Positions 20,446 through 44,997 of a stretch of DNA of 64,000 nt are shown here, piece after piece. The stretch is taken from the NCBI GenBank assembly GCA_051872655.1, contig JBJEEB010000041.1, positions 2,656 to 66,655 of the forward strand. Reading direction: 5' to 3'. A program made the position numbers and the translations under genes. Every line of letters starts with the position of its first letter. Within the stretch, counting starts at the first letter, position 1. The DNA comes from Bacilli bacterium (lineage in GTDB: Bacteria > Bacillota_I > Bacilli_A > RF39 > UBA660). The notes beneath the pieces were generated by a model. That model saw only the letters and a program-made list of their open reading frames with translations, did no database searches and had not been told where the DNA came from.

Positions 20446-21667
20446 CTCCTATATATTTACTTACCAAAACAAGTCTATTATCAACAAAATCTTTAACTTC
20501 ACTAGCAGTAATATTTTTAATAACATCATAATATTTCTTATCAAGATATTCTAAATATTTATCAACATAAGAAAATAAAATAGATCCCAAATATTCTTTA
20601 TCAAGTTCACTGTCAACCCTCGCTTTTTCCACAAATAATGGAAGTTTACTGTCAATATAAGTAATATCAGAAATACTTTTCATAGCTTTATCATATATTT
20701 CAAACACCCTATCAACATTACTATTCCCAGTGAAAGAAACAAGAGTAAGTGTACCAAAATCATAATTATAAGCACCTGTTCTATATACTAAATCATTATC
20801 CTTTCTTAAATAATTAAATAAAATATTAGAATTACTTGAACTTAAAAGTTCTTTAACAATACTAAGTAAAACAGTGTCTTTATAATTATTCATATTTCTT
20901 ACTTTATAATTACAATAAACTCCAGTTGTAGAAAAATTTGTCTTTTCTCTTACAACTAACACCTCATCTGGAATATCTTTAACATAAATAAAATAATCTT
21001 TTTTAAATTTAATATTACTGACCTTATTATCAAGAAGAATCTCCTTAATTAACTTTTTAGACTTAATTTCATCAACATTACCTATTAAAAATACCAAAGG
21101 AGGATTACTAATAATATTTTTATAAAAATCATATAAATTCTTACCATTAATATTATCAAGTAAAGACAAATCTTTAAATACTGGTGAAATAATATAATTA
21201 TCTTCATCAATTAAAAGTTCATTTTTATAATTATAGTAGCCATCATAATTTTTAAGTTTTCTTTTAACTTTTTCTTTATATAATTTTATAGTTTCTTCTA
21301 CTTTACTTTCAGGAAAAATACCATCTTCTAAATAAGGATTAAAAATCATTTCCTTAGCAAACATCAAATTATCTTCAAGAACATCTTCCTTTAAACTATC
21401 ATAGCAAGGATAACTCAAAGTGAACTCTAAAAAAGCATTATTACCAATAAAAGAAATCTTACCATCATAAGATAAACAATAATTATTAATATTAGCTACC
21501 GCTATTTTTCTTTTTGTATTATACTTCGTACTCCTATCAAAAATAATATTACCAAGTATTTTTAAGTATTCTTCATTATATTCATTTATAGGAAAAGAAA
21601 TAAACAACATACATTTCTTAAAATCAGTATTCTTAATTATTATAGGTTCATTATTTTTATTAAACAT
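20426..21667 (-). CDS. M16-family peptidase homologue lacking the HxxEH motif (non-catalytic partner subunit)
   Basis: Same length and architecture as the downstream M16 gene (413 aa) but no HxxEH. It overlaps it by 20 nt. This is the classic active/inactive M16B pair arrangement. Confidence 0.5.
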   Translation of the reverse strand: MFNKNNEPIIIKNTDFKKCMLFISFPINEYNEEYLKILGNIIFDRSTKYNTKRKIAVANINNYCLSYDGKISFIGNNAFLEFTLSYPCYDSLKEDVLEDNLMFAKEMIFNPYLEDGIFPESKVEETIKLYKEKVKRKLKNYDGYYNYKNELLIDEDNYIISPVFKDLSLLDNINGKNLYDFYKNIISNPPLVFLIGNVDEIKSKKLIKEILLDNKVSNIKFKKDYFIYVKDIPDEVLVVREKTNFSTTGVYCNYKVRNMNNYKDTVLLSIVKELLSSSNSNILFNYLRKDNDLVYRTGAYNYDFGTLTLVSFTGNSNVDRVFEIYDKAMKSISDITYIDSKLPLFVEKARVDSELDKEYLGSILFSYVDKYLEYLDKKYYDVIKNITASEVKDFVDNRLVLVSKYIGVGDDDE

Positions 21668-21782
21668 ATATATACCTCCAAAATCTATAAAAATTATATT
21701 TTAATAAAAAGGTTTTGTCAATATAGGTATATTCCCATACACATATTAATCAGTATCATAACCTATTTTAGGAGGGAAAATA

Positions 21783-22286
21783 ATGAATAATTTTAACGAT
21801 TATTATAATTATTTAAACAATAACTATAATGATATGAATTTTATGACAGATTCAAATAATATGATCTATGACATGAATACTATGACAGCATTTCCAAATA
21901 CTTTTATGATGCCAAATAATAATATAAGTGATAATTCCAATATAACAGATTCACAAACTGGTTTTAAAAGAGGTAACTTATTTAACAATCTATATAGCGA
22001 ATATAAAAACTATAAACCAAATGATTTAAAAGCAAATAGTGAAAGAGAAGATTTAATCATGCAAATTGATGAACAGAGATTTGCAATTATTGAAATGAAC
22101 CTATATCTAGATATATATCCAAATGATAAAAATGCATTAAATAAATTCAATAATTACCTAAGAAAAGAAAAAGAATTAATAAATTTATATGAAAGTAAAT
22201 ATGGTCCAATGACAATATCAAGTCCTGTTCAAACAGATAATTGGCTTTGGAATAATTCACCATGGCCATGGGAGGTGCAAAACTAA
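21783..22286 (+). CDS. cotJB: Spore coat peptide assembly protein: CotJA-like N-terminal half fused to CotJB
   Basis: The C-terminal half REDLIMQIDEQRFAIIEMNLYLDIYPNDKNALNKFNNYLRKEKELINLYESKYGPMTISS...NSPWPWEVQN matches CotJB (ELNLYLDTHP...YGPL...PWPW). The N-terminal half has the CotJA-like GTLFPELY-type motif (FKRGNLFNNLYSEYKNYKP). The stop overlaps the cotJC start by 25 nt. Confidence 0.7.
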   Translation: MNNFNDYYNYLNNNYNDMNFMTDSNNMIYDMNTMTAFPNTFMMPNNNISDNSNITDSQTGFKRGNLFNNLYSEYKNYKPNDLKANSEREDLIMQIDEQRFAIIEMNLYLDIYPNDKNALNKFNNYLRKEKELINLYESKYGPMTISSPVQTDNWLWNNSPWPWEVQN

Positions 22287-22843
22287 TGTGGAAATATGTT
22301 AAATCACTAGAATATCCTATTAATATTAAAAGAAAAGATATAAAAATGGCAAAATACTTAGTTACACAATATGGTGGACCAAATGGAGAACTAGCTGCTG
22401 CATGGAGATACTTAAACCAAAGATATACTATGCCAGATGACAAAGGAAAAGCACTTCTTACTGATATAGGAACAGAAGAACTTGCTCATGTTGAAATGAT
22501 ATCCGCAATGGTATATCAATTATTAAGTGGAGCCACAATGAAAGAATTAAAAGAAGCAGGATTAGAATCACATTATGCTGAGCATGGAAAGAGTTTATAT
22601 CCAACAAATGCTGATGGAATACCATTTACTGTAGCATATTTTGCTTCAACAGGAGATCCAATTGCAGACTTATCAGAAGATATGGCAGCAGAACAAAAAG
22701 CAAGAGCTACATATGAAAACCTAATTAATTTAACTGATGACCCAGATGTCATAGGACCACTTCTATTCTTAAGACAAAGAGAAATTATACATTTTACTAG
22801 ATTTAAAGAATTATATGATGAATATAGAAAAAAATATAAATAA
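22262..22843 (+). CDS. cotJC: Spore coat protein CotJC (manganese catalase / ferritin-like family)
   Basis: Near-identical blocks to B. subtilis CotJC as I recall it: AKYLVTQYGGPNGELAAAWRYLNQRYTMPD, LLTDIGTEELAHVEMI, DPIADLSEDMAAEQKARATY. Confidence 0.85.
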   Translation: MAMGGAKLMWKYVKSLEYPINIKRKDIKMAKYLVTQYGGPNGELAAAWRYLNQRYTMPDDKGKALLTDIGTEELAHVEMISAMVYQLLSGATMKELKEAGLESHYAEHGKSLYPTNADGIPFTVAYFASTGDPIADLSEDMAAEQKARATYENLINLTDDPDVIGPLLFLRQREIIHFTRFKELYDEYRKKYK

Positions 22844-22848
22844 CATTA

Positions 22849-22877
22849 AATACCTACATACCTAGGTATTTTTTATA
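22849..22877 (+). terminator. Rho-independent terminator after cotJC (between the convergent cotJC and typA)
   Basis: aataccta / taggtatt 8-bp stem with a 6-nt loop, followed by tttttat. Confidence 0.55.
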
Positions 22878-22889
22878 TTAAAAAAGAAG

Positions 22890-24698
22890 TTATTTCTTTG
22901 CATCAAACTTCTTTCTTAATTCAGTATTTAAAATAAACTTTCTAAGTCTAATATTTTGTGGGGTAATTTCAACAAGTTCATCGCTATTTATATAATCTAG
23001 ACAATACTCCAAAGTAAGAGGTCTAGGTCTTTTTAATACGACAGTATGGTCAGATCCAGATGCTCTAGTATTAGTAAGTTGTTTACCCTTAACTACATTA
23101 ATAGCTAAATCATTTTCCCTATTACATTCACCAACAATCATACCTTCATATACTTCAGTACCAGGTTCAATAAACATTACTCCCCTATCTTCTAATTGTC
23201 CTAAAGCATAGGCAGTAGCTTTACCAGCTTCAGTAGATACCAAAACACCAACTTTTCTTTCAGTAGAACTTATATCTTCAACAGGTAAATACTCTTTAAA
23301 ACTATGATTTAAAATACCATAACCTCTAGTTAAAGTCATAAAATTAGTATTAAAGCCAATTAATCCTCTTGAAGGAATAGTATAGTTAAGTCTAATTAAA
23401 TTATTAACATTAGACATATTTTCCATTTTACCACCACGTAAACCTAATGCCTCAATAACATTACCCACACAGTCATCACTAACTTCAATTTGAACATCCT
23501 CATAAGGTTCACATTTAACACCATCAATCTCTTTTATAATAACCTCAGGTTTAGACACTTGAAGTTCAAATCCTTCTCTTCTTAAATTTTCAATTAAAAT
23601 AGATAAATGAAGTTCTCCTCTACCAGAAACAGTCCAAGATTCATTACTAGCTTCCTCAACTTTTAAACTAACATCCCTTTGAGTTTCTTTAAATAATCTC
23701 TCTCCTATTTTTCTAGCGGTAACAATTTTACCCTCTCTACCAACAAATGGACTATTATTAACCATAAAAGTCATCTTCAAAGTAGGTTCATCAATTCTAA
23801 GTATAGGTAGTGCTTTCTCCTTACCAATATTACAAACAGTCTCGCCAACAGAAATATCCATAAGTCCAGCAACAGCAACTATATCTCCAGCATCAGCCTC
23901 ATTAATTTCAATTCTCTTAAGTCCTTCAAAACCAAATAATTTTTGAATTCTAAATTGTTTTATGCTACCATCTAATCTAACACAAGAAACCATTTCATTA
24001 ACTTTAATAGTACCACTATGAACCTTACCAATACCTATTCTACCAACATATTCATTATAATCTAAAAGTGCTGGTTGAAATTGTAAATCACCTTCTATAT
24101 TAGCGTTAGGTTCAGGTATTTCATCAATTATTAATTTAAAAATATCATCATAGTTTTCACTTTGCGTACTAATATCAGGATCTAAACTAGCAGTCCCATT
24201 TAAAGCACTAACATATGCAACTTTAAAATCAAGTTGTTCTTCACTAGCACCAAGTTCAATAAATAAATCAATTACTTCATCTAATACTTTATCAACTCTT
24301 GCAGTAGGCTTATCAACCTTATTAATAACAACAATAGGTTTAACACCAGCTTCTAGAGCCTTCTTTAAAACAAATCTAGTCTGTGGCATTGTACCTTCAT
24401 ATGCATCAACAAGTAAAAGTACACCATCCACCATATTCATAATTCTTTCTACTTCACCGCCAAAGTCAGCATGACCTGGAGTATCCAATATATTAATTTT
24501 ATATCCATTATAATGAATTGAAGTAGTTTTAGCAAGGATAGTAATACCTCTTTCTCTTTCAATATCATTAGAATCCATAGCTCTAACTTCTACTTGTTCA
24601 TTATCCCTAAAAGTACCAGATTTCTTAAGTAATTGATCAACCAAAGTAGTTTTACCATGATCAACATGAGCAATAATAGCAATATTTCTAATTTTCAT
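22890..24698 (-). CDS. typA: Translational GTPase TypA/BipA
   Basis: MKIRNIAIIAHVDHGKTTLVDQLL, DTPGHADFGGEVER, NKVDK, EF-G-like domains; ~600 aa. I place the start at ATG 24696-24698. Confidence 0.9.
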   Translation of the reverse strand: MKIRNIAIIAHVDHGKTTLVDQLLKKSGTFRDNEQVEVRAMDSNDIERERGITILAKTTSIHYNGYKINILDTPGHADFGGEVERIMNMVDGVLLLVDAYEGTMPQTRFVLKKALEAGVKPIVVINKVDKPTARVDKVLDEVIDLFIELGASEEQLDFKVAYVSALNGTASLDPDISTQSENYDDIFKLIIDEIPEPNANIEGDLQFQPALLDYNEYVGRIGIGKVHSGTIKVNEMVSCVRLDGSIKQFRIQKLFGFEGLKRIEINEADAGDIVAVAGLMDISVGETVCNIGKEKALPILRIDEPTLKMTFMVNNSPFVGREGKIVTARKIGERLFKETQRDVSLKVEEASNESWTVSGRGELHLSILIENLRREGFELQVSKPEVIIKEIDGVKCEPYEDVQIEVSDDCVGNVIEALGLRGGKMENMSNVNNLIRLNYTIPSRGLIGFNTNFMTLTRGYGILNHSFKEYLPVEDISSTERKVGVLVSTEAGKATAYALGQLEDRGVMFIEPGTEVYEGMIVGECNRENDLAINVVKGKQLTNTRASGSDHTVVLKRPRPLTLEYCLDYINSDELVEITPQNIRLRKFILNTELRKKFDAKK

Positions 24699-28423: not shown

Positions 28424-31423
28424 TTATTGCTCCCTTAAATAAGATTCTTCACCCCTTAAATATCCAATATAAACAACCTGAGCATCATCGCTATCTTCTT
28501 TACACGTAATTAAAATTATACTTTTAACATCATCATTAACATAAATACTAGCATAACCATCCTTCTTAATTTCATAACTATCACTATATATATATTGATA
28601 CTTATTGCCACCATCATAAAGATAGATTTCATCACCAAGTTCCATTTTATATAAATTACCAAAATAAGAATTATAATTATTACCATTATGTGATGCTAAT
28701 ATTATTCTATTATCGTTTTTTTCAATAATTTCAATATTATCTTTAACATTATTATGACTATTATTAACATCTACTAATCCTCTTTTTAAATTAATACTAG
28801 GTATTTCTATAAATGATGTATAACCATATTTATCATTTTCAGCAATGTCATTAACATCATTATTAAGTACTTTATCTATAGCTAACATATTTTTTTTATT
28901 ATCACTAATATAATTATAAAAATATATTCCAAAGTAAATAATACCAATAATAATAAATAAACTACTAAAAATTACTATCTTCTTATTATCCAAAAATAAT
29001 ATTAAAATAAATATAAATAAAATAATAATAACAATAATAATAAAATTTCTCATACCAACATTCATTCCAGTATTAGGAACATTTAATCTTTCATTATATA
29101 TTGTAGTTTCATATTCATCACTATCTAAAGTAAAATATATATTATTATCTAATATTCTATATCCAGTACTAGCTTCTACCTCTGCTATATAATAATCTCC
29201 ATAAGGTAAATCATCAATAACAATCATACCATTTTTATCAGTATAACCTTTATATACAACAATATTATCAGAATTTCTTATTTCAATCAAAGTATTAGAT
29301 ATTACCTCATTCGTTTTTAAATCCAATTTATGAATAATAACTTTACCTTTCTTAATATAATTATTAATATCAATCTCATAATTAATCTTTTCAGTATACT
29401 GATCCTTATATTTCAAGTCAATATCATAACTAATATCATCAAATACGTTCCCATTACTAGATTTAATTTCCTTCAAATAATACTTACCAAGGGGAATATT
29501 ATCTATTATTCCTCTTCCTTTACTATCAGTAACAATTTTATCTATTAAATCATCTTTATTATATATTAATTTATTATTTTCATATATATCATCTTTAGCA
29601 TATAACTCAAATTCAACATTATCAAGCATTATATTTTTATAATAATAACTATTATCTACATAACTAATATCTTCTCCATATTTATTAATAATAATCTTAC
29701 CCTTAACAATTTTATTATAAAAAGGAACCTCTAACATAACACCATAATTTTCATCATTAATAAAATTAGAATCTTCACCTATATAAAAATGTACACCATC
29801 TTTATTATACAAATAACCATTCATACTTTGATCAAATTCATACAAAACATACTCACCAGAATGAAGAACACTAGGTGTAATAAATTCACCATTACTAGAA
29901 ATATCAAAAGTATCTATTTCCTTAACCTCAGGGTAAGTAATTTTAAAAGAAACATATTTATTTTCTCTAACATCAAATATTTTAAATTTAATATTACTAT
30001 TAACAATATTATCTAAAGTATCAAAATCTTTCTTTACAATCTTCACTCTAGCAGTAACTTCACTATCAGATAATAGTCTATATATAGGTCTATCATCATA
30101 TTCATCAATATTAATCTTAAAATCATCAACTTTATAGTAATCCTTAGTACTAGTAATTTGTTTAAAAGTATAAATGCCATAATCTAGTTCTATACTAGCA
30201 TAACCATCATTATCTGTAACGATACTACCAATTTTATTATTATCTTTATTATATATATCAAAGACAATACCACTTTCAGTATTAAGAATACCAGTTTCAC
30301 TACTAGCAAAAACCTTAAATATATCCACTCTTCTCTTTATTATATCCTCATATACTATGATTTCTTTATTCAAATTATTTTCATCAATAACAACCTCATA
30401 AGTATTTAAATCAATCATATACCCCTCACTAGGAGTTCTTTCTTTAATATAATATTTTCCAATAGATAATTTATCTATAGTATCCTTTTTACCTGTAACA
30501 AAACTATCCACTAATTTCATATCAGAATCATATAAATCATAAATAGCACCACTTAAACTACCATCACCGCTAGGTACATTACCATTATCTCTATCAAGTT
30601 TAACTAATTTAATACTACCACTAATAATATTAAAATTAATCTTAATATTATCTTTATCTAAACCACCAGAAGACATCATTTTTTGATTATTACCAGAAGA
30701 ATATAGGAAAAATTGCTTGTCAGTATAATTAACCCTATTCAAAGTAATATAATTATTTTTAAATCCACTTTTAATAACAAGTTTATTATTATCAATAACA
30801 ACATTATCATTATCACAAACATATCTATCAAGCACATCATTAGAATCATAGAAAGAATACTCTTTTCCCAATATAACATCAATATTATCTTCAGCAAAAG
30901 AAGGTCTAGTCTTATGTTTAGTCATAAGTAAATAAATATCATTCTTCTCTTTAGATACATCGAGGTAATTATTTGTATCTATTCCAACCATATACTTAAT
31001 TGAAGCATTAGATAACCTATTCCAAATAATTTCCTGTGTAGCCATATAATATTTATCAGTATTATGTCCAGGATAGTTATAACCATAATAACTAGCTAAT
31101 TTAATATATTCTTCATCATTACTACTAAGGTTAGCTCCTTCAAAAGAATCTGTATAGGTATAATTAAAACTATCTATAGCCTTTCCAAGTTCTATGCAAT
31201 AAGCTACATCGTTTCCAAAAATATATTTACTAGCATATAAATACCTATTTCTTCCTAAATTATTATCATAATAATAAACATAAATATTATCGAATTTTTC
31301 CTTAATCAAGGTAGCATTATTTGCTCTTACTACATTACATAATGAAAACAAAAAAAATACAAATAACAAAATTTTTTTCAATAAAAACCCTCCTAAAAAA
31401 TTAATTAATTTTTGATTTTGCAA
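28424..31423 (-). CDS. Thioester-domain / Cna-B-repeat surface adhesin with a (V)PNTG sorting signal, fused in frame to a C-terminal sortase catalytic domain (999 aa)
   Basis: Signal peptide. TED signatures AYCIELGK and MATQEIIWN. Prealbumin-like Cna-B/SpaA repeats (GKYYIKERTPSEGY; GKYYLKEIKSSNGN; LPYGDYYIAEVEASTGYR). Sorting signal LNVPNTG, then TM and DNKK. A second TM follows, then sortase motifs (FIEIPSINLKRG, IILASHNG, FGNLYKMELGDEIYL, IILITCKED, YIGYLRGEE). There is no stop codon between the adhesin and sortase parts (junction nucleotides 28990-29070 read by eye). Confidence 0.7.
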   Translation of the reverse strand: MQNQKLINFLGGFLLKKILLFVFFLFSLCNVVRANNATLIKEKFDNIYVYYYDNNLGRNRYLYASKYIFGNDVAYCIELGKAIDSFNYTYTDSFEGANLSSNDEEYIKLASYYGYNYPGHNTDKYYMATQEIIWNRLSNASIKYMVGIDTNNYLDVSKEKNDIYLLMTKHKTRPSFAEDNIDVILGKEYSFYDSNDVLDRYVCDNDNVVIDNNKLVIKSGFKNNYITLNRVNYTDKQFFLYSSGNNQKMMSSGGLDKDNIKINFNIISGSIKLVKLDRDNGNVPSGDGSLSGAIYDLYDSDMKLVDSFVTGKKDTIDKLSIGKYYIKERTPSEGYMIDLNTYEVVIDENNLNKEIIVYEDIIKRRVDIFKVFASSETGILNTESGIVFDIYNKDNNKIGSIVTDNDGYASIELDYGIYTFKQITSTKDYYKVDDFKINIDEYDDRPIYRLLSDSEVTARVKIVKKDFDTLDNIVNSNIKFKIFDVRENKYVSFKITYPEVKEIDTFDISSNGEFITPSVLHSGEYVLYEFDQSMNGYLYNKDGVHFYIGEDSNFINDENYGVMLEVPFYNKIVKGKIIINKYGEDISYVDNSYYYKNIMLDNVEFELYAKDDIYENNKLIYNKDDLIDKIVTDSKGRGIIDNIPLGKYYLKEIKSSNGNVFDDISYDIDLKYKDQYTEKINYEIDINNYIKKGKVIIHKLDLKTNEVISNTLIEIRNSDNIVVYKGYTDKNGMIVIDDLPYGDYYIAEVEASTGYRILDNNIYFTLDSDEYETTIYNERLNVPNTGMNVGMRNFIIIVIIILFIFILILFLDNKKIVIFSSLFIIIGIIYFGIYFYNYISDNKKNMLAIDKVLNNDVNDIAENDKYGYTSFIEIPSINLKRGLVDVNNSHNNVKDNIEIIEKNDNRIILASHNGNNYNSYFGNLYKMELGDEIYLYDGGNKYQYIYSDSYEIKKDGYASIYVNDDVKSIILITCKEDSDDAQVVYIGYLRGEESYLREQ

Positions 31424-34175: not shown

Positions 34176-34231
34176 AAATTATCACCTAATAACTATTATA
34201 CAATATTTTTATATTTTTTCACAAAAAATAG

Positions 34232-34260
34232 TTGATTTTTTTATTGATTTTTAATATAAT
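34232..34260 (+). promoter_or_regulatory. Sigma-A-type promoter for the tRNA-Gly gene
   Basis: TTGATT (34232-34237), 17-nt spacer, TATAAT (34255-34260). The tRNA 5' end is 16 nt downstream. Confidence 0.55.
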
Positions 34261-34275
34261 ATGTATATATCTGAT

Positions 34276-34350
34276 GCAGATGTGGTTCAACGATTAGAAT
34301 TCGGCCTTGCCAAGGCTGTGACGGGGGTTTGACTCCCCTCATCTGCTCCA
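34276..34350 (+). tRNA. tRNA-Gly (anticodon GCC) with a non-canonical D-loop and T-loop
   Basis: Hand-folded cloverleaf: acceptor gcagatg/catctgc, D-stem gttc/gaat, anticodon stem cggcc/ggctg with loop ttGCCaa, 4-nt variable loop, T-stem ggggg/cccct, T-loop tttgact, discriminator t, encoded CCA. The D-loop aacgatta lacks G18G19 and the T-loop has U at position 56. Confidence 0.6.
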
Positions 34351-34360
34351 TGTGAAATTT

Positions 34361-34389
34361 AACTAGTGCTTCACAGTACTAGTTTTTTT
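34361..34389 (+). terminator. Rho-independent terminator of the tRNA-Gly transcript
   Basis: aactagtgc ttcaca gtactagtt hairpin (about 9 bp including one G-U) followed by ttttttt. Confidence 0.6.
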
Positions 34390-34589
34390 ATGGAACAAAT
34401 GAGGGAAACAACACCAATCTTTTTTAGACAATTATTAAAATTAATAATTTTATCCCTTATAAAGTTCCATCTTACACATACTAAAGTATTAATATCATAT
34501 TCACTATTATTATTATCTTATTTATATATTCATTACCCTCTAATTTTTTATATTAATTAGCACTTAATAATTTAAAATTCATATTTACA

Positions 34590-37487
34590 TTAAATTACTT
34601 TTTTCAATATTTTATCAGTTTTTAAATCTATTGAACTTATTTCACATTCAGCTCTTCTATCAAATGAATTACTAAATATTTCAATACTACCATCTAAATA
34701 ACTAATAACATACCAATCATCATTGCAATAAACTTCTTTTAAATCTAATACATCTATTGTTTCATATTGTTCCAAAGAATTATTCTTTTCTGCTTTCACA
34801 TATCTTAATGCATTAACTTTTTTATTAATTTCAATCAAATAATTTTCTTCATAAGATTTATCTGATAAATAATGCATAATCTCTTTTCTATCATCTTGAT
34901 AACTAAAATAACTTTGTCCTAAATTAAATATACCATTTCCTCTAATTAAATATTGGACATTTTTAGAATCAGAATATTCTACCGCCTCAATCGGTTGTGG
35001 TAAAATATCAACAAACTTTCTTTTAATTCCCAATTTACTTCCAAAGTCCTTATCTTTAAGATTACAAGTTTTAGCTATTAAGCAAGGATATTTTTCTATA
35101 CCTTTTATTTCTTTATCAAAATTAGTAAACCCAATAGTTACATTTTTAATACAACTATCTATTCCTTCAAATTCAAATGAAATTCTTATTAATTCATCAA
35201 TAGCTTGTAAATATACATCAAAGAAATCAACACAATCTATCTTTTTTGAAATTTCAATATTATCAAAGCACAATAAATCTCCATTTCTCCAAACCCAACT
35301 ATGTGCTAAAATCTCATTATCTTTTTTAACAACAAATATTCTTCCATTAAAACTAGTTACAGCATGTTTTAAACATGAATATCCATTACCTAACACAGTA
35401 AAACAGCAATCAGTCTTATTACCAACACATAAAGCTTCCATATTATCTAATCTTAATATTTCATAAGAATATTTATCTTTTGTTCCTGTAATTCTTGGTA
35501 TTGTAGAAGATATTCTACCTAAAATCTGATCATGTAATATTAAAGTTTCATTTACAATACTATTTGTACATCCAATAAATTTAAATATTCCCTCTAAACG
35601 ATAATATTTAGGTGGTAGTGTTATTTCATCACTTTTTAAAAATTCTATTATTGTCTTTAATGATTTATCCTTATTATTCATCTCAATCATTTTCCATTCA
35701 CTAAATATTCTAGGAAAATATTTATATAAATCACTATCTTTATTAGATAACATTCCTTTAATCCTAGAATAATTTCTATCACTAAATAATAAATTAATTA
35801 TCTTAGTATTTAGTATTGGATTACCTTGTTTATCTAAAATTACATTCTTAATATCAACATTACCTACTAAATGCTCTAATACAGGTAATGTATCATCAAT
35901 TTCTAATAAAACTCTAGCGTTATTAAATCCAACCATTAACATTAATTTTAAAATTAATTGTTTATAATTTCTAAAATGCCAGTCGCTATTTTCAAACTTT
36001 TTACATAACTGTTTATGTTGTTTAACATTATAATTTTCTAATTGTTCTACAGTAAAATCTTCTACTTTAAAATCTATACTTCCTAATCTATTTAAGATTG
36101 TTATTTCTTCAATACTAGACAGCTCATATAAAACAGTAATTGACTTACCCATAACAATTTTATAAAATAATTTTTCTATTTCTATAAAATTATTATTTTC
36201 AATATTGTTAACAATATTTTGATTTCTTAAGAACAATATAAAATTTGATAAGTGTTGTTTATAATTTTTATCACTTTTTGTAATAATATTACTTTTTAAC
36301 ATTTCTCTAAGTTCACTTAAATTTTTAAAATATTTTTCCGAAAAAATAGAAGTCATTTCATCAATTTCCTCTAATATACCATTAGTTTTAATATTACTTC
36401 TATATTTTGTTTCAACATATCTCAATGCTGATACAGATTTTTTATGCCAATAAGAAATATAAAAGTTTGTGTCAAAAAGCAATTCAATATTACCAATTTC
36501 AAAAGTATCCAATATTTCTTTAAATTTATCATTAAATATTCCAGAATTAGAACATGCTATGATCCAATCATTTAAAGTTAATGAATTAAACACTTCTTTA
36601 TCATCACTATATAAATTAATAATAATTTTTGGTTTAATACTATTATTAATTTTCTTGATATCATGGTCTTGTATTATATTTTCAAAAAAATTAGATATTA
36701 AAATTTCTTGCTTCGTTTCATCAGTTTCACTCAAATACTCTTTTAAATCATATTCAGAAATATTACTAAATGTAGTATTTAATTTATCATAATGATCACT
36801 TACAAATTCTCTATATACATCTATATCTTCAATATACCTTATAAATGTTAATAGTTCTCTTGGTTTAAATTCATTAATTTTATCTATATATTTTTCTAAT
36901 ATAAAATCCATAAATTCTTTATTATAAATTCTTTGTTGTTCAAAAGCATTATTTATATCATGCATAGTAGCCTTATCATAACAACATCTATTATGAAAAC
37001 ATAATCCATTAATAAATTTTATATTTTCTACTTGCATTAATTCAGTATAAAATTCAGTATAAAAAGAATAATACTCTTCATGTGTAAATCCATAAAATAA
37101 ATTTTCAGGATTTTGACTTATAACTTTTCTAAATACATCAATATCAATATTTCTCAATTCCTTTAATACATTAAAAGAAAGAAAATATGATAAAGATCTA
37201 GGAGCCAACATTGTATAAAGAAATATATCTTCATCATGCTCTTTAATATATTTAATATTCTCTTTTATAAATATTATTTGCTTATCTTCTGGTAATTTAC
37301 TAATAATAAAATAAACAGAAAGAGGATTCATATCGTTAATATCTTTATTACCAGTTCTAATATATTCATCGCACTCTTTAAGAGCTTTTTCTTCATTTTC
37401 TTTACTTACATTTAATGAAAGCAGTATAGATTTTTTCCCAAGTTCTTCTAACAACACTTCAATTTGTTCACTAGTTAATTCTGGCAC
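34590..37487 (-). CDS. Large hypothetical protein (965 aa), mostly alpha-helical, with a possible transglutaminase-like Cys-His-Asp core near residues 690-750
   Basis: No family recognised overall. The segment GYSCLKHAVTSFNGRIFVVKKDNEILAHSWVWRNGDLLCFDN resembles the transglutaminase-like cysteine-protease core (G.C...A...G.PAR.V.G.....HAW.E....GW...D). It starts 22 nt after the upstream AAA+ gene, so co-transcription is likely. Confidence 0.5.
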   Translation of the reverse strand: MPELTSEQIEVLLEELGKKSILLSLNVSKENEEKALKECDEYIRTGNKDINDMNPLSVYFIISKLPEDKQIIFIKENIKYIKEHDEDIFLYTMLAPRSLSYFLSFNVLKELRNIDIDVFRKVISQNPENLFYGFTHEEYYSFYTEFYTELMQVENIKFINGLCFHNRCCYDKATMHDINNAFEQQRIYNKEFMDFILEKYIDKINEFKPRELLTFIRYIEDIDVYREFVSDHYDKLNTTFSNISEYDLKEYLSETDETKQEILISNFFENIIQDHDIKKINNSIKPKIIINLYSDDKEVFNSLTLNDWIIACSNSGIFNDKFKEILDTFEIGNIELLFDTNFYISYWHKKSVSALRYVETKYRSNIKTNGILEEIDEMTSIFSEKYFKNLSELREMLKSNIITKSDKNYKQHLSNFILFLRNQNIVNNIENNNFIEIEKLFYKIVMGKSITVLYELSSIEEITILNRLGSIDFKVEDFTVEQLENYNVKQHKQLCKKFENSDWHFRNYKQLILKLMLMVGFNNARVLLEIDDTLPVLEHLVGNVDIKNVILDKQGNPILNTKIINLLFSDRNYSRIKGMLSNKDSDLYKYFPRIFSEWKMIEMNNKDKSLKTIIEFLKSDEITLPPKYYRLEGIFKFIGCTNSIVNETLILHDQILGRISSTIPRITGTKDKYSYEILRLDNMEALCVGNKTDCCFTVLGNGYSCLKHAVTSFNGRIFVVKKDNEILAHSWVWRNGDLLCFDNIEISKKIDCVDFFDVYLQAIDELIRISFEFEGIDSCIKNVTIGFTNFDKEIKGIEKYPCLIAKTCNLKDKDFGSKLGIKRKFVDILPQPIEAVEYSDSKNVQYLIRGNGIFNLGQSYFSYQDDRKEIMHYLSDKSYEENYLIEINKKVNALRYVKAEKNNSLEQYETIDVLDLKEVYCNDDWYVISYLDGSIEIFSNSFDRRAECEISSIDLKTDKILKKVI

Positions 37488-37509
37488 AGTATAATCCCCC
37501 TTTCTTTTT

Positions 37510-39093
37510 TTATTTTCTAAATTTATTAAAGTCTATTCTTAAAACTCTTTGTGCGGATTTAGATATACTTTTATCTAAACTCCTTAATCTCTCTATTGCT
37601 TGTTCTCTAGTAGATTCATAAATTCTATCACAGTATTCAAAACTTTCAATAAAATGTTCTGCTGTTATAAACTCACTATCATAAACTTTAGCAAATGCAA
37701 ACGCTTTATCAACAATAGATATTGATAAGTCAGGATTATTAACCATATCGTTATAAACTCTATGATTTTTTTCAGTAGCACTTACAATAATATCAACAAC
37801 TTGATTTCTTATATTTTCATTTTCAAATTGTATTCCATTTTTTAAATAGTAATCACCAATTACTTTATCAATTATTTGACATAAAATATCTTCAGTAGGC
37901 TCTTTAACTATAATTTTTTCAAATCTTCTTTTTAATGCATCACCACTAAAAAATTCATTATACTCTTTTTCAGTTGTTGTTCCAATTACCTTTAAATTTG
38001 ATCTATCTATATAGTGTTTTAACATAGATGCCATATCATTATCCTTACTTTTAGATGAACCAATACCATATATTGTATGAATCTCATCAATGAAAACTAT
38101 TACATCTAATTTTTCACATAACTTCATTAATTTAGTCATGTTATCTTCAAACATTCCTACATATTGACAGCCTGCAACAACATCACTAGGATTAACCTCT
38201 AAAATTATTTTCCCTTGTAAGAAACTAGGTACTTGTCCTATTTTAATTCTATATGCTAGTTCATCCACTAATGCAGTTTTTCCTACACCTGACTCTCCAA
38301 CAATTAAAGGTCTCTTTTTATCTTGTGCTAAAGTAATCATAAGATTTTTTAATTCTTTTTCTCTTCCAATAGTTGGAGGTACCATATAATTTTTCATATT
38401 TAATACTTTTCCATATTTTTCAAGTTCTAATATTTCCTTATCAGATATTTGTTGAGTCATAGTAGTAACAGTTGATCCTTGGCTTCTTGGAATATTACTT
38501 ATGTTAGAAGTTTGTATTTCAACTTCTTCTTTTTTTTCAAATTTACCATTAGTATTTTTCTTGAACATCTTATCAAATCTTTCAATTTGTATTGCCGTAT
38601 ATTGTTTTTGATAACGCATAGCTTCAATTAAATTTCTTCCTTCAGAACAAACCTTACTAGAATCAAATCCATTAGCACATAATAATTCATAAATTCCTTC
38701 TACTTCTCCTAAATAATCATCACTATAAATTGCAGTATGCATAATAGTATCTTTATCACTATCAACGTGATTAACATTTAAATTATATTTTAATGCTTCA
38801 GTAATGATACTTAAAATAAATTCTTCACTATATCCTGCATATAAAGCAGTTTGAATAAAGTTATAGTTAAAATCATCTTCTAAATTTGGATTTAGTCCTA
38901 TTTGTAATAATGATTTAATGGCAAGAAAACACTTTGTCTCATCATATTTATCATCCACTAAAATATGTAATAATGATTGATTATCTTCATCAGTATATTC
39001 TAAACTACCAAATGCTTTCTTAATCTTTCTTAAATTAGAATTTGTATCATCAGTCATCTTTGATAATAACTCTCTTATATTATTATTTAACAT
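37510..39093 (-). CDS. Ankyrin-repeat protein fused to a ClpA/ClpB-type AAA+ D1 ATPase module (single nucleotide-binding domain, 527 aa)
   Basis: N-terminus has 3-4 ANK-like repeats (QSLLHILV, NFIQTALYAGYSEE, TIMHTAIYS...ELLCANGFD). The C-terminal region aligns with ClpB NBD1: Walker A LIVGESGVGKTALVDELAYRI, GKIILEVN...VAG, Walker B VIVFIDEIHT, sensor-1 VIGTTT, arginine finger ALKRRFE. No second AAA domain. Confidence 0.7.
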   Translation of the reverse strand: MLNNNIRELLSKMTDDTNSNLRKIKKAFGSLEYTDEDNQSLLHILVDDKYDETKCFLAIKSLLQIGLNPNLEDDFNYNFIQTALYAGYSEEFILSIITEALKYNLNVNHVDSDKDTIMHTAIYSDDYLGEVEGIYELLCANGFDSSKVCSEGRNLIEAMRYQKQYTAIQIERFDKMFKKNTNGKFEKKEEVEIQTSNISNIPRSQGSTVTTMTQQISDKEILELEKYGKVLNMKNYMVPPTIGREKELKNLMITLAQDKKRPLIVGESGVGKTALVDELAYRIKIGQVPSFLQGKIILEVNPSDVVAGCQYVGMFEDNMTKLMKLCEKLDVIVFIDEIHTIYGIGSSKSKDNDMASMLKHYIDRSNLKVIGTTTEKEYNEFFSGDALKRRFEKIIVKEPTEDILCQIIDKVIGDYYLKNGIQFENENIRNQVVDIIVSATEKNHRVYNDMVNNPDLSISIVDKAFAFAKVYDSEFITAEHFIESFEYCDRIYESTREQAIERLRSLDKSISKSAQRVLRIDFNKFRK

Positions 39094-39194
39094 ATAAAAT
39101 TCCCCCTTAAATAGTTGGTTAATATTATAACATAAGATTTAATAAATAACAACGTAATTTTAATTAGATAGTTATAAAAAAAGTACTTTATAAT

Positions 39195-40106
39195 CTAAGT
39201 ACTTTTTATAATATTACTATTTGCACTATTTAAAATTCTAATAAAATGATTTGCCTCTCTTAAAACATGATCTGCTAGTAAAGGAATAATTATACTTTTA
39301 ACTTTACAATTCAAAATCCCCTCTTCACCTGCTATTTTAAATTTCCTAAAGTCAATTGTTTCATTTAAACTAATGCCAGTTAAATAAGAAGGATTATTTT
39401 TATACTTTTGCATAATAACCTCATATTCAGTTACATACTTACCAGCAGTAAGAATTAAATCTTTTTCACTAGGATCTAGTAATCCTCTTATAAATTCAGC
39501 ATGTTCTTTCATAATATTATTCCAAAACAATTCTTGTTCATATATAAAATTACTACTAAAAGGTTCCTTATTTTCAACTTTACTAAGTAAATTATAATAC
39601 ATTTTAGCCTCATTAATTATATGGGTAATAAGTAAAGGATAATTAGAAGTATACATATTACAAGATAAAACCTTATTTAAAATATCATTTTTAAAATAAA
39701 TCAAATTTTTAATAATAGGTAATGTCTGTTTATTAATATTACTAATGGTATTAACTAATTCATCACTTATAATTAAATTTCCACTTTTTAATTGACTTTC
39801 CATCATAGTAATATTTGTATCTATTTGTATTTGAGTTAAATCACTACTTTTCTTTTCAGCTTCTAATGTTTTATCAGTAACAATTTCTCCAGAATTAAGT
39901 AAATTACTACTAACTTTTCCATTAGCTAAAACAACTACTTTCTCTAAAATATTAGAAAAAAATTTTTGAAAATTATTTGCAATTGTCTTTTCTTCCTTAT
40001 TTTTTTCAGTAAAAGACATTTCAATAAAAAAACTATGTTCTTTCATAATACGATCAAAAAACAAATGTAACTCTAATGACATGCCAACATACTCTTTATA
40101 ATTCAT
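39195..40106 (-). CDS. Hypothetical helical protein with an internal duplication (possibly hemerythrin-like/DUF2935-type)
   Basis: Two copies of a W-x-x-I-M-K-E-H-[AS]-x-F-I motif (FFDRIMKEHSFFIEM ; FWNNIMKEHAEFIRGLLDP). I place the start at ATG 40104-40106, 5 nt downstream of a GGAGGG Shine-Dalgarno sequence. Confidence 0.45.
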   Translation of the reverse strand: MNYKEYVGMSLELHLFFDRIMKEHSFFIEMSFTEKNKEEKTIANNFQKFFSNILEKVVVLANGKVSSNLLNSGEIVTDKTLEAEKKSSDLTQIQIDTNITMMESQLKSGNLIISDELVNTISNINKQTLPIIKNLIYFKNDILNKVLSCNMYTSNYPLLITHIINEAKMYYNLLSKVENKEPFSSNFIYEQELFWNNIMKEHAEFIRGLLDPSEKDLILTAGKYVTEYEVIMQKYKNNPSYLTGISLNETIDFRKFKIAGEEGILNCKVKSIIIPLLADHVLREANHFIRILNSANSNIIKST

Positions 40107-40272
40107 TATTTCCCTCCAATTAAATATATGTAATATCATCTAAAAAATATCAAAAGAAATTATATACAAATATTGTCAAATAAATTTTTTATTATAGTTT
40201 TACTTCGACATACAAAAATCCCATTCCTAAATTCAAGGAATGGAATTCATAACATACAAAATTACTTAGTAA

Positions 40273-41745
40273 TTAATGAGCAACTTGTAATATAAGAGAA
40301 AATAAACAAAGTATAAATATATTAGCAATTGCAATAGTTACAACTATTTTAAATGCCCACTTAAACCAAGTAGAATATTCTACTTTAGCAAGAGCAAGTC
40401 CACCCATAATAGCTCCACAAGTTGGAGTAATCAAGTTAACAAGTCCATTAGCAGATACTAAAGTCATGATAGTAACTTCAACATTATAACCAAGTTGTGC
40501 TGCTAAAGGAGCAATAATAGGTGTAGATAAAGTAGCAAGTCCTGATGAAGAAGGAACTAATATAGATAATACTATATGTAATATATAGTTAAGAGGTATA
40601 AATAACATCTGAGGCATCTTAGATAATATATTAGCGGCATTATAAATAATATAATTATCTAAATATGTCTGTTTCATAAGTACACTAGCACCTCTAGCAA
40701 TAGCTATAACTAATATGACACCAATCATATCATCAGCACCATCTACAAATGTATCAACAAACCCTTTTTCTCCAAACCTATTAATAATAGCAATAATTAT
40801 TGACATTATTAAGAACCATAAAGCAGCTTCATAGAACCACCAATTACCAAGCGATGATCCAGTAAGCCATCCAGTGAATTTATCAAATATAGTTACTCCA
40901 AATTCACCCCATGGAATAAATCCTATAATCATTACAAGGAATGTTAATCCAAATAATACTAAAGTAACTTTTTGTTTACCAGATAATTTAACTTCTTTTT
41001 GTTCTGTTTTGCCATTTTCTTCATGTTCTTCAAAACTACCAAATTTCTTTTCAGCAGCTTTTTGTTCTCTTAAAGATAGGAAAGTAGACCCTTTATCTTT
41101 TTGTACTTTTTTAGCATATTTTACTACAAAGAAAGTACAAATAGCATAAGTAGTAAGCCATAAAAATACTCCTATTAAAATAACTACTCCCTGATTAGAA
41201 CTAATAGAATCTGGAAGTGCACTTAGTGCCACACCAGTAGCAAATGGATTTACTGTTGAACCTAAGCAACCCGCTCCTGCACCTAAAAGTACTACAGCAG
41301 ATCCAACAAGAGGATCCATACCAGCAGCCATCATAGTAGCGGCAAGTAATACATAGAATCCTACAGTTTCTTCAAGCATACCATAAGTTGTTCCACAAAT
41401 AGAGAATATAAACATTAAAATAGGTATTAATAATATTTCTCTTCCTTTTAATTTACGTACTAGAACCTTAATTCCTGTTTCTAATGCTCCAGTTTTATTA
41501 ACAACAGCAAGTAATCCACCAAGCATCATAATGAAAATACCAACATCTATAGCATCTTCAAAGCCTAATATTGGTGCCATTAAAATTTGTGATAATTTAG
41601 CACCTACTGTACCACTTCCATTTACAATTTCTTCACCTATAAATTTTGCATTAGGAAGAACATGAGATAATATTCCTAAAACAAATATTAATATAAGTAT
41701 GATAGAAAATGAAGAAAGTAATACCTTTTTCCTTTTTTTAGCCAT
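40273..41745 (-). CDS. YfcC-family transporter, putative arginine/ornithine antiporter of the ADI locus
   Basis: 490 aa polytopic protein of the DcuC/YfcC-like family (GALETGIKVL..., MMAAGMDPLVGSAVVLLGAGAGCLGSTVNPFATGVA). The basic N-terminus MAKKRKK and the position as last gene of the arc operon support the call. Confidence 0.6.
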   Translation of the reverse strand: MAKKRKKVLLSSFSIILILIFVLGILSHVLPNAKFIGEEIVNGSGTVGAKLSQILMAPILGFEDAIDVGIFIMMLGGLLAVVNKTGALETGIKVLVRKLKGREILLIPILMFIFSICGTTYGMLEETVGFYVLLAATMMAAGMDPLVGSAVVLLGAGAGCLGSTVNPFATGVALSALPDSISSNQGVVILIGVFLWLTTYAICTFFVVKYAKKVQKDKGSTFLSLREQKAAEKKFGSFEEHEENGKTEQKEVKLSGKQKVTLVLFGLTFLVMIIGFIPWGEFGVTIFDKFTGWLTGSSLGNWWFYEAALWFLIMSIIIAIINRFGEKGFVDTFVDGADDMIGVILVIAIARGASVLMKQTYLDNYIIYNAANILSKMPQMLFIPLNYILHIVLSILVPSSSGLATLSTPIIAPLAAQLGYNVEVTIMTLVSANGLVNLITPTCGAIMGGLALAKVEYSTWFKWAFKIVVTIAIANIFILCLFSLILQVAH

Positions 41746-41753: not shown

Positions 41754-42689
41754 TTACCTCCTCTTTATTATTGTACCTGTTTTTCCATTTATAGCATCTT
41801 TAGCTTTATCAAGTGAACTAATAATAGCTATCCTATCATTAGAATTATCTATAAAATCAAGACAAGCTTCTATTTTAGGAAGCATACTTCCTTTAGCAAA
41901 ATGTCCTTCTTTTATATACTCTTCTGCCTCTTCAATAGTTAAACTATCAAGCATAACCTCATTATCAGTATTGTAGTTCAAACATACTTTTTCAACAGCA
42001 GTTAATATAAGGAAAGTATCAGCATTTATTTCTTTAGCAAGTAAAGCTCCAGATCTATCCTTATCAATAACAGCCTCTACTCCTTTTAATCCCTCATCAG
42101 TTTTAACTACAGGTATACCACCACCACCTACTGCTATTACAATACTACCATTATCAAGAAGTTTTATTATAGAATTCTTCTCAATAATACTTTTAGGAAT
42201 TGGAGAAGGTACAACTCTCCTATAACCACGTCCAGCATCCTCAGTAAATACATAGTGTTTTTCTTTCTCTATTTCCATAGCTTTTTCTTTGCTATAGAAC
42301 ATTCCAATAGGCTTAGTTGGATTTTGAAAAGCACTATCATTACTATCTACTAGAACCTGTGTTACCAAGGATACACATTCCTTTTTAATACCTTGTCTAT
42401 TTAATTCATTTAAAATAGACTGTTGCATGTGATATCCTATATAACCTTGACTCATACTTCCACATTCAGGAAATGGCATACTAGGAGTACCAGCCTCACC
42501 ACTAGAAGCATATTCCATAGCAAGCGCTATTTGCCCCACCTGTGGACCATTACCATGTGTAAGAACTATTTCATTACCATCATTAATAAGTTCTACTATA
42601 ATTTTAGCTACATTAGATAAAAGATTTAATTGTTCATCTGGAGTTTTGCCTAAAGCATTACCACCTAATGCAATAACAATTCTACTCAT
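41754..42689 (-). CDS. arcC: Carbamate kinase
   Basis: [14 protein letters not shown] start, [21 protein letters not shown] motifs. 311 aa. Overlaps the arcAB stop by 8 nt. Confidence 0.85.
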
Positions 42690-44997
42690 TATCTTCCCTC
42701 ATAGTAGCATAAACTACAGCTTTAATAGTATGTAATCTATTTTCTGCTTCATCAAATACTTTAGACTTACTCGAAGTAAATACTTCATCAGTAACTTCCA
42801 TTTCTTTAATTCCAAATTTATCATAAATATCTTTACCAATAGTAGTCTTTAAATCATGAAAAGATGGAAGACAATGTAAGAATATAGCATTAGAATTAGC
42901 ATTATTCATGATATCCATATTAACTTGATAAGGCTTAAGCAAGTTAATCCTTTCATTCCATACTTCATCAGGTTCTCCCATAGATACCCAAACATCAGTA
43001 TAAATAACATCTGCATCTTTAGAAGCTTCCATAACATCATCTGTCATTTCTATACTACCACCAGTATTGTTAGCTATTTCTCTACATTTATTAGCAAGTT
43101 CTTCACTTGGCCATAATTCCTTTGGTCCACATGCAACAAAATGCATTCCCATTTTAGCACACACAACCATAAGAGAATTAGCAACATTATTTCTAGCATC
43201 ACCCATAAATACAAGTTTAATGCCATCCAAATGCCCAAAATTTTCTTCAACAGTCATAACGTCTGCTAACATTTGAGTTGGATGGAACTGTGTAGTAAGA
43301 CCATTCCATACGGGCACACCAGCACATCTAGCTAATTCCTCAACAATTTCTTGGTCATAACCTCTATACTCAATACCATTATACATTCTTCTCAATACTT
43401 TAGCAGTATCTTCAATACTTTCTTTTTTACCCATTTGAGAACTACCTGGATCTAAGTAAGTAACTCCCATACCCAAATCCAATCCTGCAACTTCAAAAGC
43501 ACATCTTGTTCTTGTCGAAGTTTTTTCAAATAACAAAACAATATTTTTATTATTTAAATATCTATGAGGAATACCATTATGCTTCTTTTCCTTAAAATCT
43601 TTAGCTAAATCAAGTAAATATCTAATTTCCTCAGAACTATAATCAAGTAAAGTCAAAAAGTTTCTTCCTCTTAAATCAATTTTATTACCAACTTTCTTTA
43701 CATCAGTATTATTAGAAAAATAAATATTTTCTGTTTCCACCTTAGTATCATCAAGATTATCTCTTACCAAAGGCATACTCATACATCTTGGACCGCCACG
43801 ACCACGAGATAATTCAGCACTGCTCATTTCAATTACCTTAATACCATGCTCCCTTAATATATTATTAGTAATATTATTTCTATCATAAACTACAACAACT
43901 CCAGGAGCAATACACAAAGTATTAGTACCATCATTCCACTGCTCTCTTTCAGAAGAAATTCTCTCTCCACCAGCACATGGAATCAAAGTAATCTTTCTAC
44001 CTAAATATCTTTCAAGTATCTCTTCAAGACTACCCTCAACTTTTTTAACATTCAAATCTTCATCACTATCTGGAACATCTCCTTCAGTAATTTCAAATAC
44101 CTCCAAAGTATCCATAATACCCGGATGAAATGTAAATTTATCATAATCAATTTGTGTAAATACAGTATCTAAGTGCATAAATGCTCTAGATTCTGGTATA
44201 TTAAATACCAAAATAGTATCAATTTCACAATCAGGATTCCTAAACATATTCTTAGCAAGTTCATCTATAGCTCCAGATTCAGTTCTTTGAGATATACCCA
44301 CTGCAAGGACATGATTACTTAAATTAAGAACATCGCCTCCTTCAATGTGGTAAGGCAAATATCTATCATAATATTTATTAATCTTGCCTTTATAATCAGG
44401 ATGATAATTAAATATATATTCAGCATAAATAGTCTCTCTATTTCTTGTTACAGAATACATCTTATTTAAAATAACACCATTACCTGCACTAGCAAATGGA
44501 TCCCTAGTAAAATACAAATTAGGCATAGGATCTGCCAAAAATTCAGATTCATCACTAACCAAATCAACAAGTGACTTTTCTACTTCTCTCTTTTTTCTAG
44601 GTATTTCCTCTATTTTAATACCTTCCATAGTCTTAAGAACTAGTTCTTTCTTATTAATAAAACTCTTTAAATAATCGAAAACAAGTTCTTTATATTTAGG
44701 AGTTCTAATACCAGCTTCAAAAATAAATTGTCTAATAAATTTATTTTCAATATCATCTCCAAGTTCTAGTACCTCAGCCATTAAATCTTCTAAATAAACA
44801 ACCTCAATACCATTTTCTTTTAATATGTGTGCAAATTCATCATGCTCCTTTTGTGCTTCAGGTAAAAAAGGAATATCATCAAAAAGTAATCTATTCAAAG
44901 TATCAGGAGTTAAATTAAGAAGTTCATTTCCTGGTCTATGAAGTAATACTTTTCTTAAAGTTCCAATCTCACTCTTTACATTAATAACATTATCCAT
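42682..44997 (-). CDS. arcA: Bifunctional arginine deiminase - ornithine carbamoyltransferase (ArcA-ArcB in-frame fusion, 771 aa)
   Basis: Residues 1-420 are ADI ([22 protein letters not shown]..., catalytic Cys in [13 protein letters not shown]). A 25-aa linker follows with no stop or start. Residues ~445-771 are catabolic OTCase ([53 protein letters not shown]). Junction DNA was read by eye and is in frame. Confidence 0.8.

Follow-up and report, generated by a model that had tools for sequence, protein, structure and literature searches.

A movable two-gene cassette of uncultured gut Bacilli pairs an ankyrin-AAA+ ATPase with a large protein carrying a predicted GNAT-fold domain

What kind of system is encoded when a Clp-like ATPase gene stands directly before a very large gene of no recognised family, and does the couple correspond to anything already described? 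The window considered here, the whole stretch of 64,000 nucleotides analysed from contig JBJEEB010000041.1, carries such a pair on its minus strand: an open reading frame (ORF) of 527 codons with an ATG start (37510..39093), followed after 22 nucleotides by one of 965 codons with a GTG start (34590..37487), each preceded by a GGGGGA-type ribosome-binding site. Both the coordinates and the spacing agree with those of a first-pass annotation made from the sequence alone, as an ORF listing confirmed. The Clostridia setting assumed in that annotation does not apply, since the source organism is a metagenome-assembled genome (MAG) labelled 'Bacilli bacterium'; the 965-residue protein is 100% identical to a hypothetical protein of such a MAG. 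We conclude that the pair has not been described before: it is an accessory module whose parts are of known kinds.

The two genes are tightly coupled. In every locus where the large protein is at least 48% identical and the upstream region was recovered, an ankyrin-AAA+ gene lies 6-30 nucleotides upstream, so the pair co-occurs outside this genome; among these ortholog loci the ATPase gene is intact in 22 and decayed in two lineages. Across 18 loci the identities of the two proteins correlate with r = 0.96, and the two genes have been inherited and have diverged together. The pair is thus, as had been proposed, a real two-gene unit without a match to a described system.

More distant relatives reveal which part of the ATPase protein is the more persistent partner. 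The upstream genes of homologues at 36-40% identity encode the ankyrin module only, which makes this module the constant companion of the large protein and the AAA+ part a clade-specific fusion. This module occurs in single (192-216 residues), doubled (409-412 residues), and tripled form, the last with an AAA+ fusion (919 residues), and nearly always stands directly upstream of a member of the large-protein family; all 27 informative loci with an alignable N-terminal region of ~440 residues have an upstream ankyrin gene. Distant members share the C-terminal half only, are mostly found without an ankyrin gene, and have tightly coupled downstream partners of ~220-490 residues in 34 loci and ~330 residues in 6 loci, neither family giving a convincing match in Pfam, NCBIfam, or the PDB. 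A stand-alone, 322-residue Clp-D1-like ATPase encoded 1.9 kb downstream of one giant member (locus L087) provides an independent link between the family and Clp D1. The annotated neighbourhoods of two distant members consist almost entirely of unannotated genes.

Some details of these partner genes deserve separate record. In the larger group (L035-L080) the partner lies directly downstream, usually after 3-20 nucleotides (for example 11482..12273 in L056 and 11656..13131 in L035), and carries the conserved motif DKAEVLAxLYNxSxPxGMGxxQYDPxPMT. In the smaller group (L083-L088) giant members of 1290-1620 residues overlap at the 3' end with the ~330-residue gene (6272..11125 and 11109..12134 in L084), whose product gave a below-threshold aldehyde-dehydrogenase-like match. 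A divergent ORF of ~2170 residues, located upstream of an array of ankyrin genes and a large-protein homologue, was seen on the minus strand of two sheep or faecal MAGs (L028, 1310..7804; L032, 1285..7806).

The 527-residue protein carries a single AAA+ module of the Clp/Hsp100 D1 type (Table 1). Its residues 186-473 match positions 128-413 of the NCBIfam model for ClpA (E 5.9e-49), and further matches were obtained with ClpB (3.5e-43), TssH/ClpV (4.8e-40), ClpK, and ClpG, all of them partial and far under the full-length cut-offs (166.9 bits against 993 for ClpA). The top PDB match is a Thermus ClpB fragment comprising nucleotide-binding domain 1 (4hse, E 2.7e-36), and all 44 hits of Clp/Hsp100 type, among 45 PDB hits in total, align through D1. 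The Walker A motif (GESGVGKT, 266-273), pore loop (GCQYVGMFE, 308-316), Walker B motif (FIDEIH, 334-339), sensor-1 (371-374), and the arginines of an RRF motif (389-391) can all be located, and these positions are mostly at least 95% conserved in 118 full-length homologues, with the pore-loop Tyr at 77%. This conservation predicts a working enzyme and rules out a truncated clpB pseudogene remnant. NCBIfam, the PDB, and the homologue alignment thus agree with the first-pass description of a ClpB-D1-type module complete with Walker A, Walker B, sensor-1, and arginine finger, and equally correct was the reported lack of D2: the protein ends at residue 527, ~50 residues past the D1 small subdomain. 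The C-terminal tail shows a weak resemblance to the first part of the ClpB middle-domain helix, the 4hse alignment reaching residue 517 with low confidence.

At the other end of the ATPase no Clp_N domain was matched by Pfam at E <= 0.1, and the N-terminus resembles ankyrin repeats instead. In the 527-residue protein itself this call is marginal (Pfam Ank_2, E 2e-3; the PDB ankyrin protein EMB506, E 6e-4). A stand-alone homologue of the module (L028:9409-9984) exceeds the Pfam thresholds with Ank_5 (29.1 bits) and Ank_4 (28.2 bits), and precomputed ankyrin domains are present on several homologues, so that the proposed fusion of ANK-like repeats to the AAA+ module stands. The protein has no transmembrane segment.

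The 965-residue partner is, as already noted in the first pass, without a known family: searches of Pfam, NCBIfam, PADLOC, and PHROGs, and a profile search of PDB sequences, all gave no match. It lacks any hydrophobic segment fit for a membrane span as well as a secretion signal, and is predicted to be a soluble, cytoplasmic protein. A full-length AlphaFold model with a predicted local distance difference test (pLDDT) score of 72.5 consists of a confident alpha-solenoid (1-465), a poorly modelled helical stretch (466-655), and alpha/beta domains thereafter. Designed TPR proteins were matched weakly by the middle region, perhaps owing to its composition; apart from these TPR-like matches, located before the alpha/beta part, no sequence link of the conserved core to solved structures was detected. 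The last ~65 residues of this region (from ~580) are conserved family-wide. The C-terminal unit is missing from one subclade, in which the protein has 869-887 residues (L021-L024 and L091).

Structure-based searches gave a more specific result for the domain at residues ~656-860. Two AlphaFold models, searched in three ways, returned only GNAT (acyl-CoA N-acyltransferase) folds and no transglutaminase or papain-like structure. The order of strands and helices is that of GNAT proteins, namely beta1, alpha1, alpha2, beta2-4, alpha3, and beta5, and the top structural neighbours are all GNATs, including RimI, PanZ, Naa40/50/60/80, Gcn5, PaiA, and the toxin AtaT.

Conservation across the family directs attention to the same domain. 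A profile search covering 1.84 billion cluster representatives yielded 1177 relatives, each representing a cluster at 50% identity, and scanning species-representative genomes gave 197; little was gained from a third homology search, in which the core alignment returned only short or fragmentary proteins. The core common to the family spans residues ~580-790, many relatives have 1100-1870 residues, and no Pfam domain was present among nine sampled relatives. In giant paralogues the conserved domain is internal and not C-terminal. The family signature comprises R658, P664, Y675, C694-C695, R716, S730-W-x-W-R-N735, C740, D742, and E745, which lie on the alpha1-alpha2 loop and strands beta2-beta4. 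In GNAT enzymes these elements line the cleft for acyl donor and acceptor; by analogy, we infer that the conserved residues of the large protein line a donor/acceptor cleft as well. Nearly all relatives come from MAGs labelled uncultured Bacilli, Tenericutes, or 'Mycoplasma sp. CAG:877', obtained from human, mouse, rabbit, and ruminant guts, and some of these genomes contain several family copies. The host MAGs presumably belong to an RF39-type lineage.

Is the pair resident or movable? The first-pass annotation had taken it for accessory, acquired DNA, and comparison of species-representative genomes favours this idea. By blastn, identity of 85-95% is limited to ~4.5-4.65 kb, from 50-60 nucleotides upstream of the ATPase start to 0-90 nucleotides past the stop of the large gene, with unrelated flanks in most comparisons (L013/L014 at 95%, L008/L015 at 91%, and L022/L091 at 93%). 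Such confinement of identity to a ~4.55-kb cassette, the mobile genes near some loci, and the decay of the ATPase gene all argue for accessory, movable DNA. The genes that enclose the pair in L091 encode two large serine recombinases, a Mob_Pre relaxase, a tyrosine integrase, and a methylase/ResIII pair. Of 85 loci, 8 have a Mob_Pre relaxase within 10 kb of the pair, 5 a serine recombinase, and 3 an integrase. Decay is exemplified by L008, where TAA nonsense mutations interrupt the ATPase gene and recur identically in the independent assembly L009 next to an intact large gene (965 residues), and by L024, where the ATPase gene is internally deleted and the large gene retained. The L008 pseudogene (8393..9978, with the same coordinates in L009) is interrupted by in-frame TAA codons, those at positions 82 and 264 among them, and by a frameshift, and is flanked by fragments of a mutator-family transposase and a Mob_Pre gene.

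Phage and plasmid collections gave no tblastn match to the pair, no PHROG corresponds to the large protein, and among 2.9 million viral contigs of IMG/VR a single one carries the pair, with a recombinase, a relaxase, and an integrase as flanks and not recognisable phage genes; a phage or plasmid origin was accordingly ruled out. Nor did a second part of the first-pass proposal survive, in which the pair was an island anchored at a tRNA gene. The tRNA-Gly(GCC) gene at 34276..34350 (+) is, as claimed, the sole tRNA gene in the window, and, being convergent, has its 3' end 239 nucleotides from the stop codon of the large gene. However, the 28-nucleotide tRNA 3' end occurs only once in the window, even with up to three mismatches allowed, so that no att-like repeat is present; there is no integrase between 34351 and 39194; and the DNA within 3 kb of the pair is free of tRNA genes in L001, L003, L006, and L008. 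The same tRNA-Gly 3' end adjoins the pair only in the near-identical L005 and in L017, an 89% relative, and the region of L006 is roughly syntenic without the tRNA. Integration at a tRNA as a genomic island was therefore rejected, on the missing 3'-end repeat and the non-recurrent tRNA adjacency.

Comparison with L006 also delimits the cassette. The stretch shared with that locus corresponds to window positions 39150..34599, and its upstream edge coincides with a putative promoter with 10 of 12 hexamer matches plus the TG extension; promoter-like sites in this AT-rich DNA number 49 against 47.5 expected, not above chance, which makes the site weak evidence. Bases 34599..39150 form a self-contained operon of a putative promoter and two translationally close genes. 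A hairpin on the far side is the sole terminator-like site in 34200..39400 and is regarded as context, not as a proven part of the cassette. The 240-nucleotide 3' spacer is common to the window and L017 and is not found in L006. The GC content of the pair (20-27%) is similar to that of its surroundings and not distinct.

Table 1. Features of the cassette and its borders (window coordinates)
Feature	Coordinates	Strand	Details
Ankyrin-type module	38569..39093	(-)	Residues 1-175 of the 527-residue protein
Variable linker	38419..38568	(-)	Residues 176-225; mean column conservation 0.44-0.54 versus 0.8-0.9 in the flanking domains
Single Clp/Hsp100 D1-type AAA+ module	37669..38418	(-)	Residues 226-475, large and small subdomains
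C-terminal helical tail and stop codon	37510..37668	(-)	Residues 476-527
N-terminal alpha-solenoid (model)	36093..37487	(-)	Residues 1-465 of the 965-residue protein
Helical middle region	35523..36092	(-)	Residues 466-655; pLDDT 31-57
Divergent GNAT-fold domain (predicted)	34908..35522	(-)	Residues ~656-860
C-terminal helix, small three-stranded beta unit, and stop codon	34590..34907	(-)	Residues 861-965; secondary structure from the model
Promoter-like site	39124..39152	(-)	TTGTTA, 17-nucleotide spacer, TG-extended TATAAT; ~30 nucleotides upstream of the ATPase start codon
Terminator-like hairpin	34361..34384	(+)	Just 3' of tRNA-Gly and before the cassette's 3' end is reached

How might such a module work? 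The mechanism that we prefer, with a probability of roughly 0.4 for the scheme as a whole, is that of an adaptor, an unfoldase, and a GNAT-like working end. Briefly, the ankyrin module would act as an adaptor dedicated to the large protein, with the N-terminal solenoid as the most likely docking site, and in this clade the adaptor would bring a ring-forming Clp-type unfoldase to that protein. ATP-driven threading would then either remodel and thereby activate the large protein, or feed it a bound protein substrate. The GNAT-like domain would be the working end, with the invariant residues Cys695, Arg716, Arg734, Asp742, and Glu745 on the alpha1-alpha2 loop and beta2-beta4; because these residues sit on the elements that line the cleft, the probable activity of the domain is transfer of an acyl or aminoacyl group, or binding of a ligand of this kind, by means of a non-canonical donor site. 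The mobility, decay, and rapid diversification of the family point to an accessory, possibly conflict-related role rather than a housekeeping one.

Several observations weigh against this scheme. The GNAT motif A (Q/R-x-x-G-x-G/A), which forms the acetyl-CoA pyrophosphate loop, is missing between beta4 and alpha3; the loop that follows C-F-D-N-I-E at this place differs among relatives in both length and sequence, with no glycine conserved; and the Pfam scan gave no match to a GNAT hidden Markov model. The domain could therefore be non-catalytic, and given its strand order and the missing motif, it is filed under the GNAT fold as modelled and not as a demonstrated acetyl-CoA-dependent acetyltransferase. 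The docking of the ankyrin module on the solenoid is proposed from co-occurrence. The large gene remains intact next to a broken ATPase gene in L008, L009, and L024, hence the ATPase is not strictly required for retention of the large protein. As regards mobility, no mobile-element gene adjoins the window copy, and in L006, the closest relative at 88%, the surroundings of the pair are roughly syntenic, with the pair again downstream of the FUR/rubrerythrin/SDR/DUF975/flavin-reductase block found in the window, so that vertical descent explains that comparison. L006 is also without the arginine-deiminase genes and the tRNA, having a prophage integrase instead.

Anti-phage defence or abortive infection is the rival that survives best, and we consider it possible though doubtful. 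Here the ankyrin-AAA+ protein would sense, or be triggered by, a phage component, and the large protein would act as effector and halt growth, for instance through a GNAT-type modification of aminoacyl-tRNA or some other essential target. An ATPase combined with a large effector is a layout suited to this role, and the Dodola anti-phage system, composed of DolA of unknown function and DolB with a ClpB domain, makes a similar pairing (PMC11514479). The variable contexts of the cassette, sometimes beside mobile-element genes and the methylase/ResIII pair, its decay in some lineages, the fast-diversifying and multi-copy nature of the family, and the presence of the GNAT toxin AtaT among the Foldseek hits are likewise in favour. 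However, with PADLOC matches taken at E <= 0.1, the large protein had no match and those of the ATPase were marginal (mad8, E 7.5e-4; IetA, E 2.7e-3), while the 125 nearest neighbours in 25 loci contained no recurrent or consistent PADLOC defence system, no Pfam family was seen in more than 3 of these 125, and the neighbours in the window are metabolic or housekeeping genes (DUF2935, arginine deiminase pathway, tRNA, ffh). Known defence systems were ruled out on these grounds, no PADLOC match being meaningful and no defence gene recurring nearby. A literature search for systems combining ankyrin, Clp-like, and GNAT components found nothing relevant.

It is unlikely that the pair is a toxin-immunity or addiction module, in which a GNAT-type toxin would be neutralised by the upstream ankyrin module with or without the ATPase. 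Small ankyrin-only proteins adjoin family members, the downstream partner families of distant members resemble swappable immunity genes, and an association with mobilisable elements exists. Against this, the large gene survives next to an upstream gene with nonsense mutations (two assemblies) or an internal deletion (L024), a state that would be lethal if the upstream gene encoded an essential antidote, and an internal position of the conserved domain in giant paralogues, the lack of a secretion signal, and a size far beyond that of known GNAT toxins do not fit such a role.

A lineage-specific quality-control or tagging pathway, in which the GNAT-fold domain would tag proteins and the Clp D1-type ring unfold them, is suggested by analogy and is similarly improbable. 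N-degron pathways, with their GNAT-fold aminoacyl-tRNA protein transferases, feed ClpS-ClpAP, and here too a Clp-type unfoldase is coupled to a GNAT-fold protein; the missing canonical CoA loop is compatible with a non-CoA donor, and the conserved arginines could bind a nucleic-acid or nucleotide donor. However, FemA and ATE1 rank under dozens of ordinary acetyltransferases and fall outside the top 60 with the better model, there is neither a protease partner nor a D2 with a ClpP-docking loop, and the patchy distribution, variable location, and pseudogenes disagree with a housekeeping role. Finally, the transglutaminase- or papain-like Cys-His-Asp protease working with the Clp ATPase, the core of which the first-pass annotation had suspected, has very little left in its favour: Cys694, Cys695, and Asp742 are conserved with a spacing that superficially fits C...H...D, but the required His729 is Gln in 73% of 114 diverse relatives and not invariant in alignments A2, A3, and A4, and with the GNAT order of strands and helices in the models this core was ruled out.

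The preferred scheme, in which an ankyrin adaptor links an unfoldase to a GNAT-like domain, can also be placed against systems of known architecture. Class I Clp/Hsp100 proteins (ClpA, ClpB, and ClpC) share with the window ATPase a D1 with both subdomains, Walker A and B, the pore-loop Tyr, sensor-1, and the arginine finger. Unlike them, it has one AAA+ module with no D2 and no ClpP-docking loop, an ankyrin module in place of Clp_N, and, at the point where the middle domain of ClpB would start, no more than a short helix. Human CLPB, or Skd3, combines an ankyrin domain with a single AAA+ module and is a mitochondrial disaggregase (PMC7343390, PMC9934407). The layout is the same in the window protein, with an N-terminal ankyrin part, a linker, and one Clp-family AAA+ module, and by analogy it suggests a stand-alone unfoldase whose ankyrin part handles the binding of a substrate or partner. 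The ATPase module of Skd3 is of the D2 type. In contrast, the window module matches D1, with no Skd3/CLPB chain among the 45 PDB hits, and therefore the two architectures probably arose independently and their resemblance is convergent. Skd3 is also not known to have a dedicated neighbouring partner gene, unlike the window ATPase.

On the side of the large protein, the models reproduce the fold and strand-helix order of the GNAT superfamily, from which the protein differs by its own signature, CC...R...SWxWRN...CxDxxE, and by the embedding of the domain in a chain of ~1000 and up to ~1870 residues. Type II toxin-antitoxin systems of the GNAT/ribbon-helix-helix kind combine a toxin of ~160-190 residues with a small DNA-binding antitoxin, unlike the 965-residue protein and its ankyrin-AAA+ partner. 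Dodola is similar in being a two-gene unit of a Clp-like ATPase and a larger protein of unknown function at scattered genomic positions, but an ankyrin module and a GNAT-fold domain are not described for it; PADLOC returned no Dodola-labelled match, the presence of Dodola models in that release being unchecked. In its defining sequence features, then, the pair matches none of the Clp D1 proteins, Skd3, the GNAT superfamily, or Dodola.

Aside from the cassette, the surrounding genes offered several observations of their own. Upstream of the pair, 39195..40139 (-) encodes a tandem DUF2935 protein (Pfam E 2.3e-60, in two stretches) with a hairpin after its stop codon, just before the putative cassette promoter; the first-pass annotation had called this neighbour hemerythrin-like, and by Pfam it is a DUF2935 protein. 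Further on, a 771-residue ORF (42682..44997, -) fuses a full arginine deiminase (Pfam ADI, 36-412) to a full ornithine carbamoyltransferase (OTCace_N and OTCace, residues 445-764), and is followed by carbamate kinase (41754..42689) and a DcuC-type carrier (40273..41745), the entire block being missing from the otherwise syntenic L006. In L006 a prophage-like block (13286..22973) begins ~300 nucleotides after the large gene and includes an integrase, an M78 peptidase/helix-turn-helix pair, a DnaB-type helicase, and an ERCC4 nuclease; the same position in the window is occupied by the spacer and tRNA-Gly, and this spacer cannot be aligned between the two. On the other side of the pair, a 999-residue ORF (28424..31423, -) comprises a thioester domain, four SpaA-type domains, and a C-terminal sortase domain, its product being an adhesin or pilin fused to its own sortase.

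Taken together, a sizeable family without annotation in any library, almost all of it in uncultured, small-genome gut Bacilli, now has a predicted GNAT-like fold, a signature motif, and obligate partner genes, and the human CLPB/Skd3 architecture has a bacterial counterpart in the combination of an ankyrin module with a single Clp D1. Even if the function should turn out to be mundane, a tempting mis-annotation as a protease on a tRNA island has been corrected. Should a new type of acyl or aminoacyl transferase prove to be controlled or supplied by the ATPase, GNAT-fold enzymes would gain a novel principle of regulation; the pair might also represent a novel class of accessory or conflict modules that are mobile. 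As a speculative extension, held only tentatively, the cassette may be a new conflict system of uncultured gut Bacilli, in which an ankyrin-recruited Clp-type unfoldase switches on a giant, non-canonical GNAT-fold enzyme that uses a donor other than acetyl-CoA and acts on an essential or invader target. If this is true, the wider family, with more than 1000 sequence clusters and swappable partner genes, would be a large unexplored arsenal.

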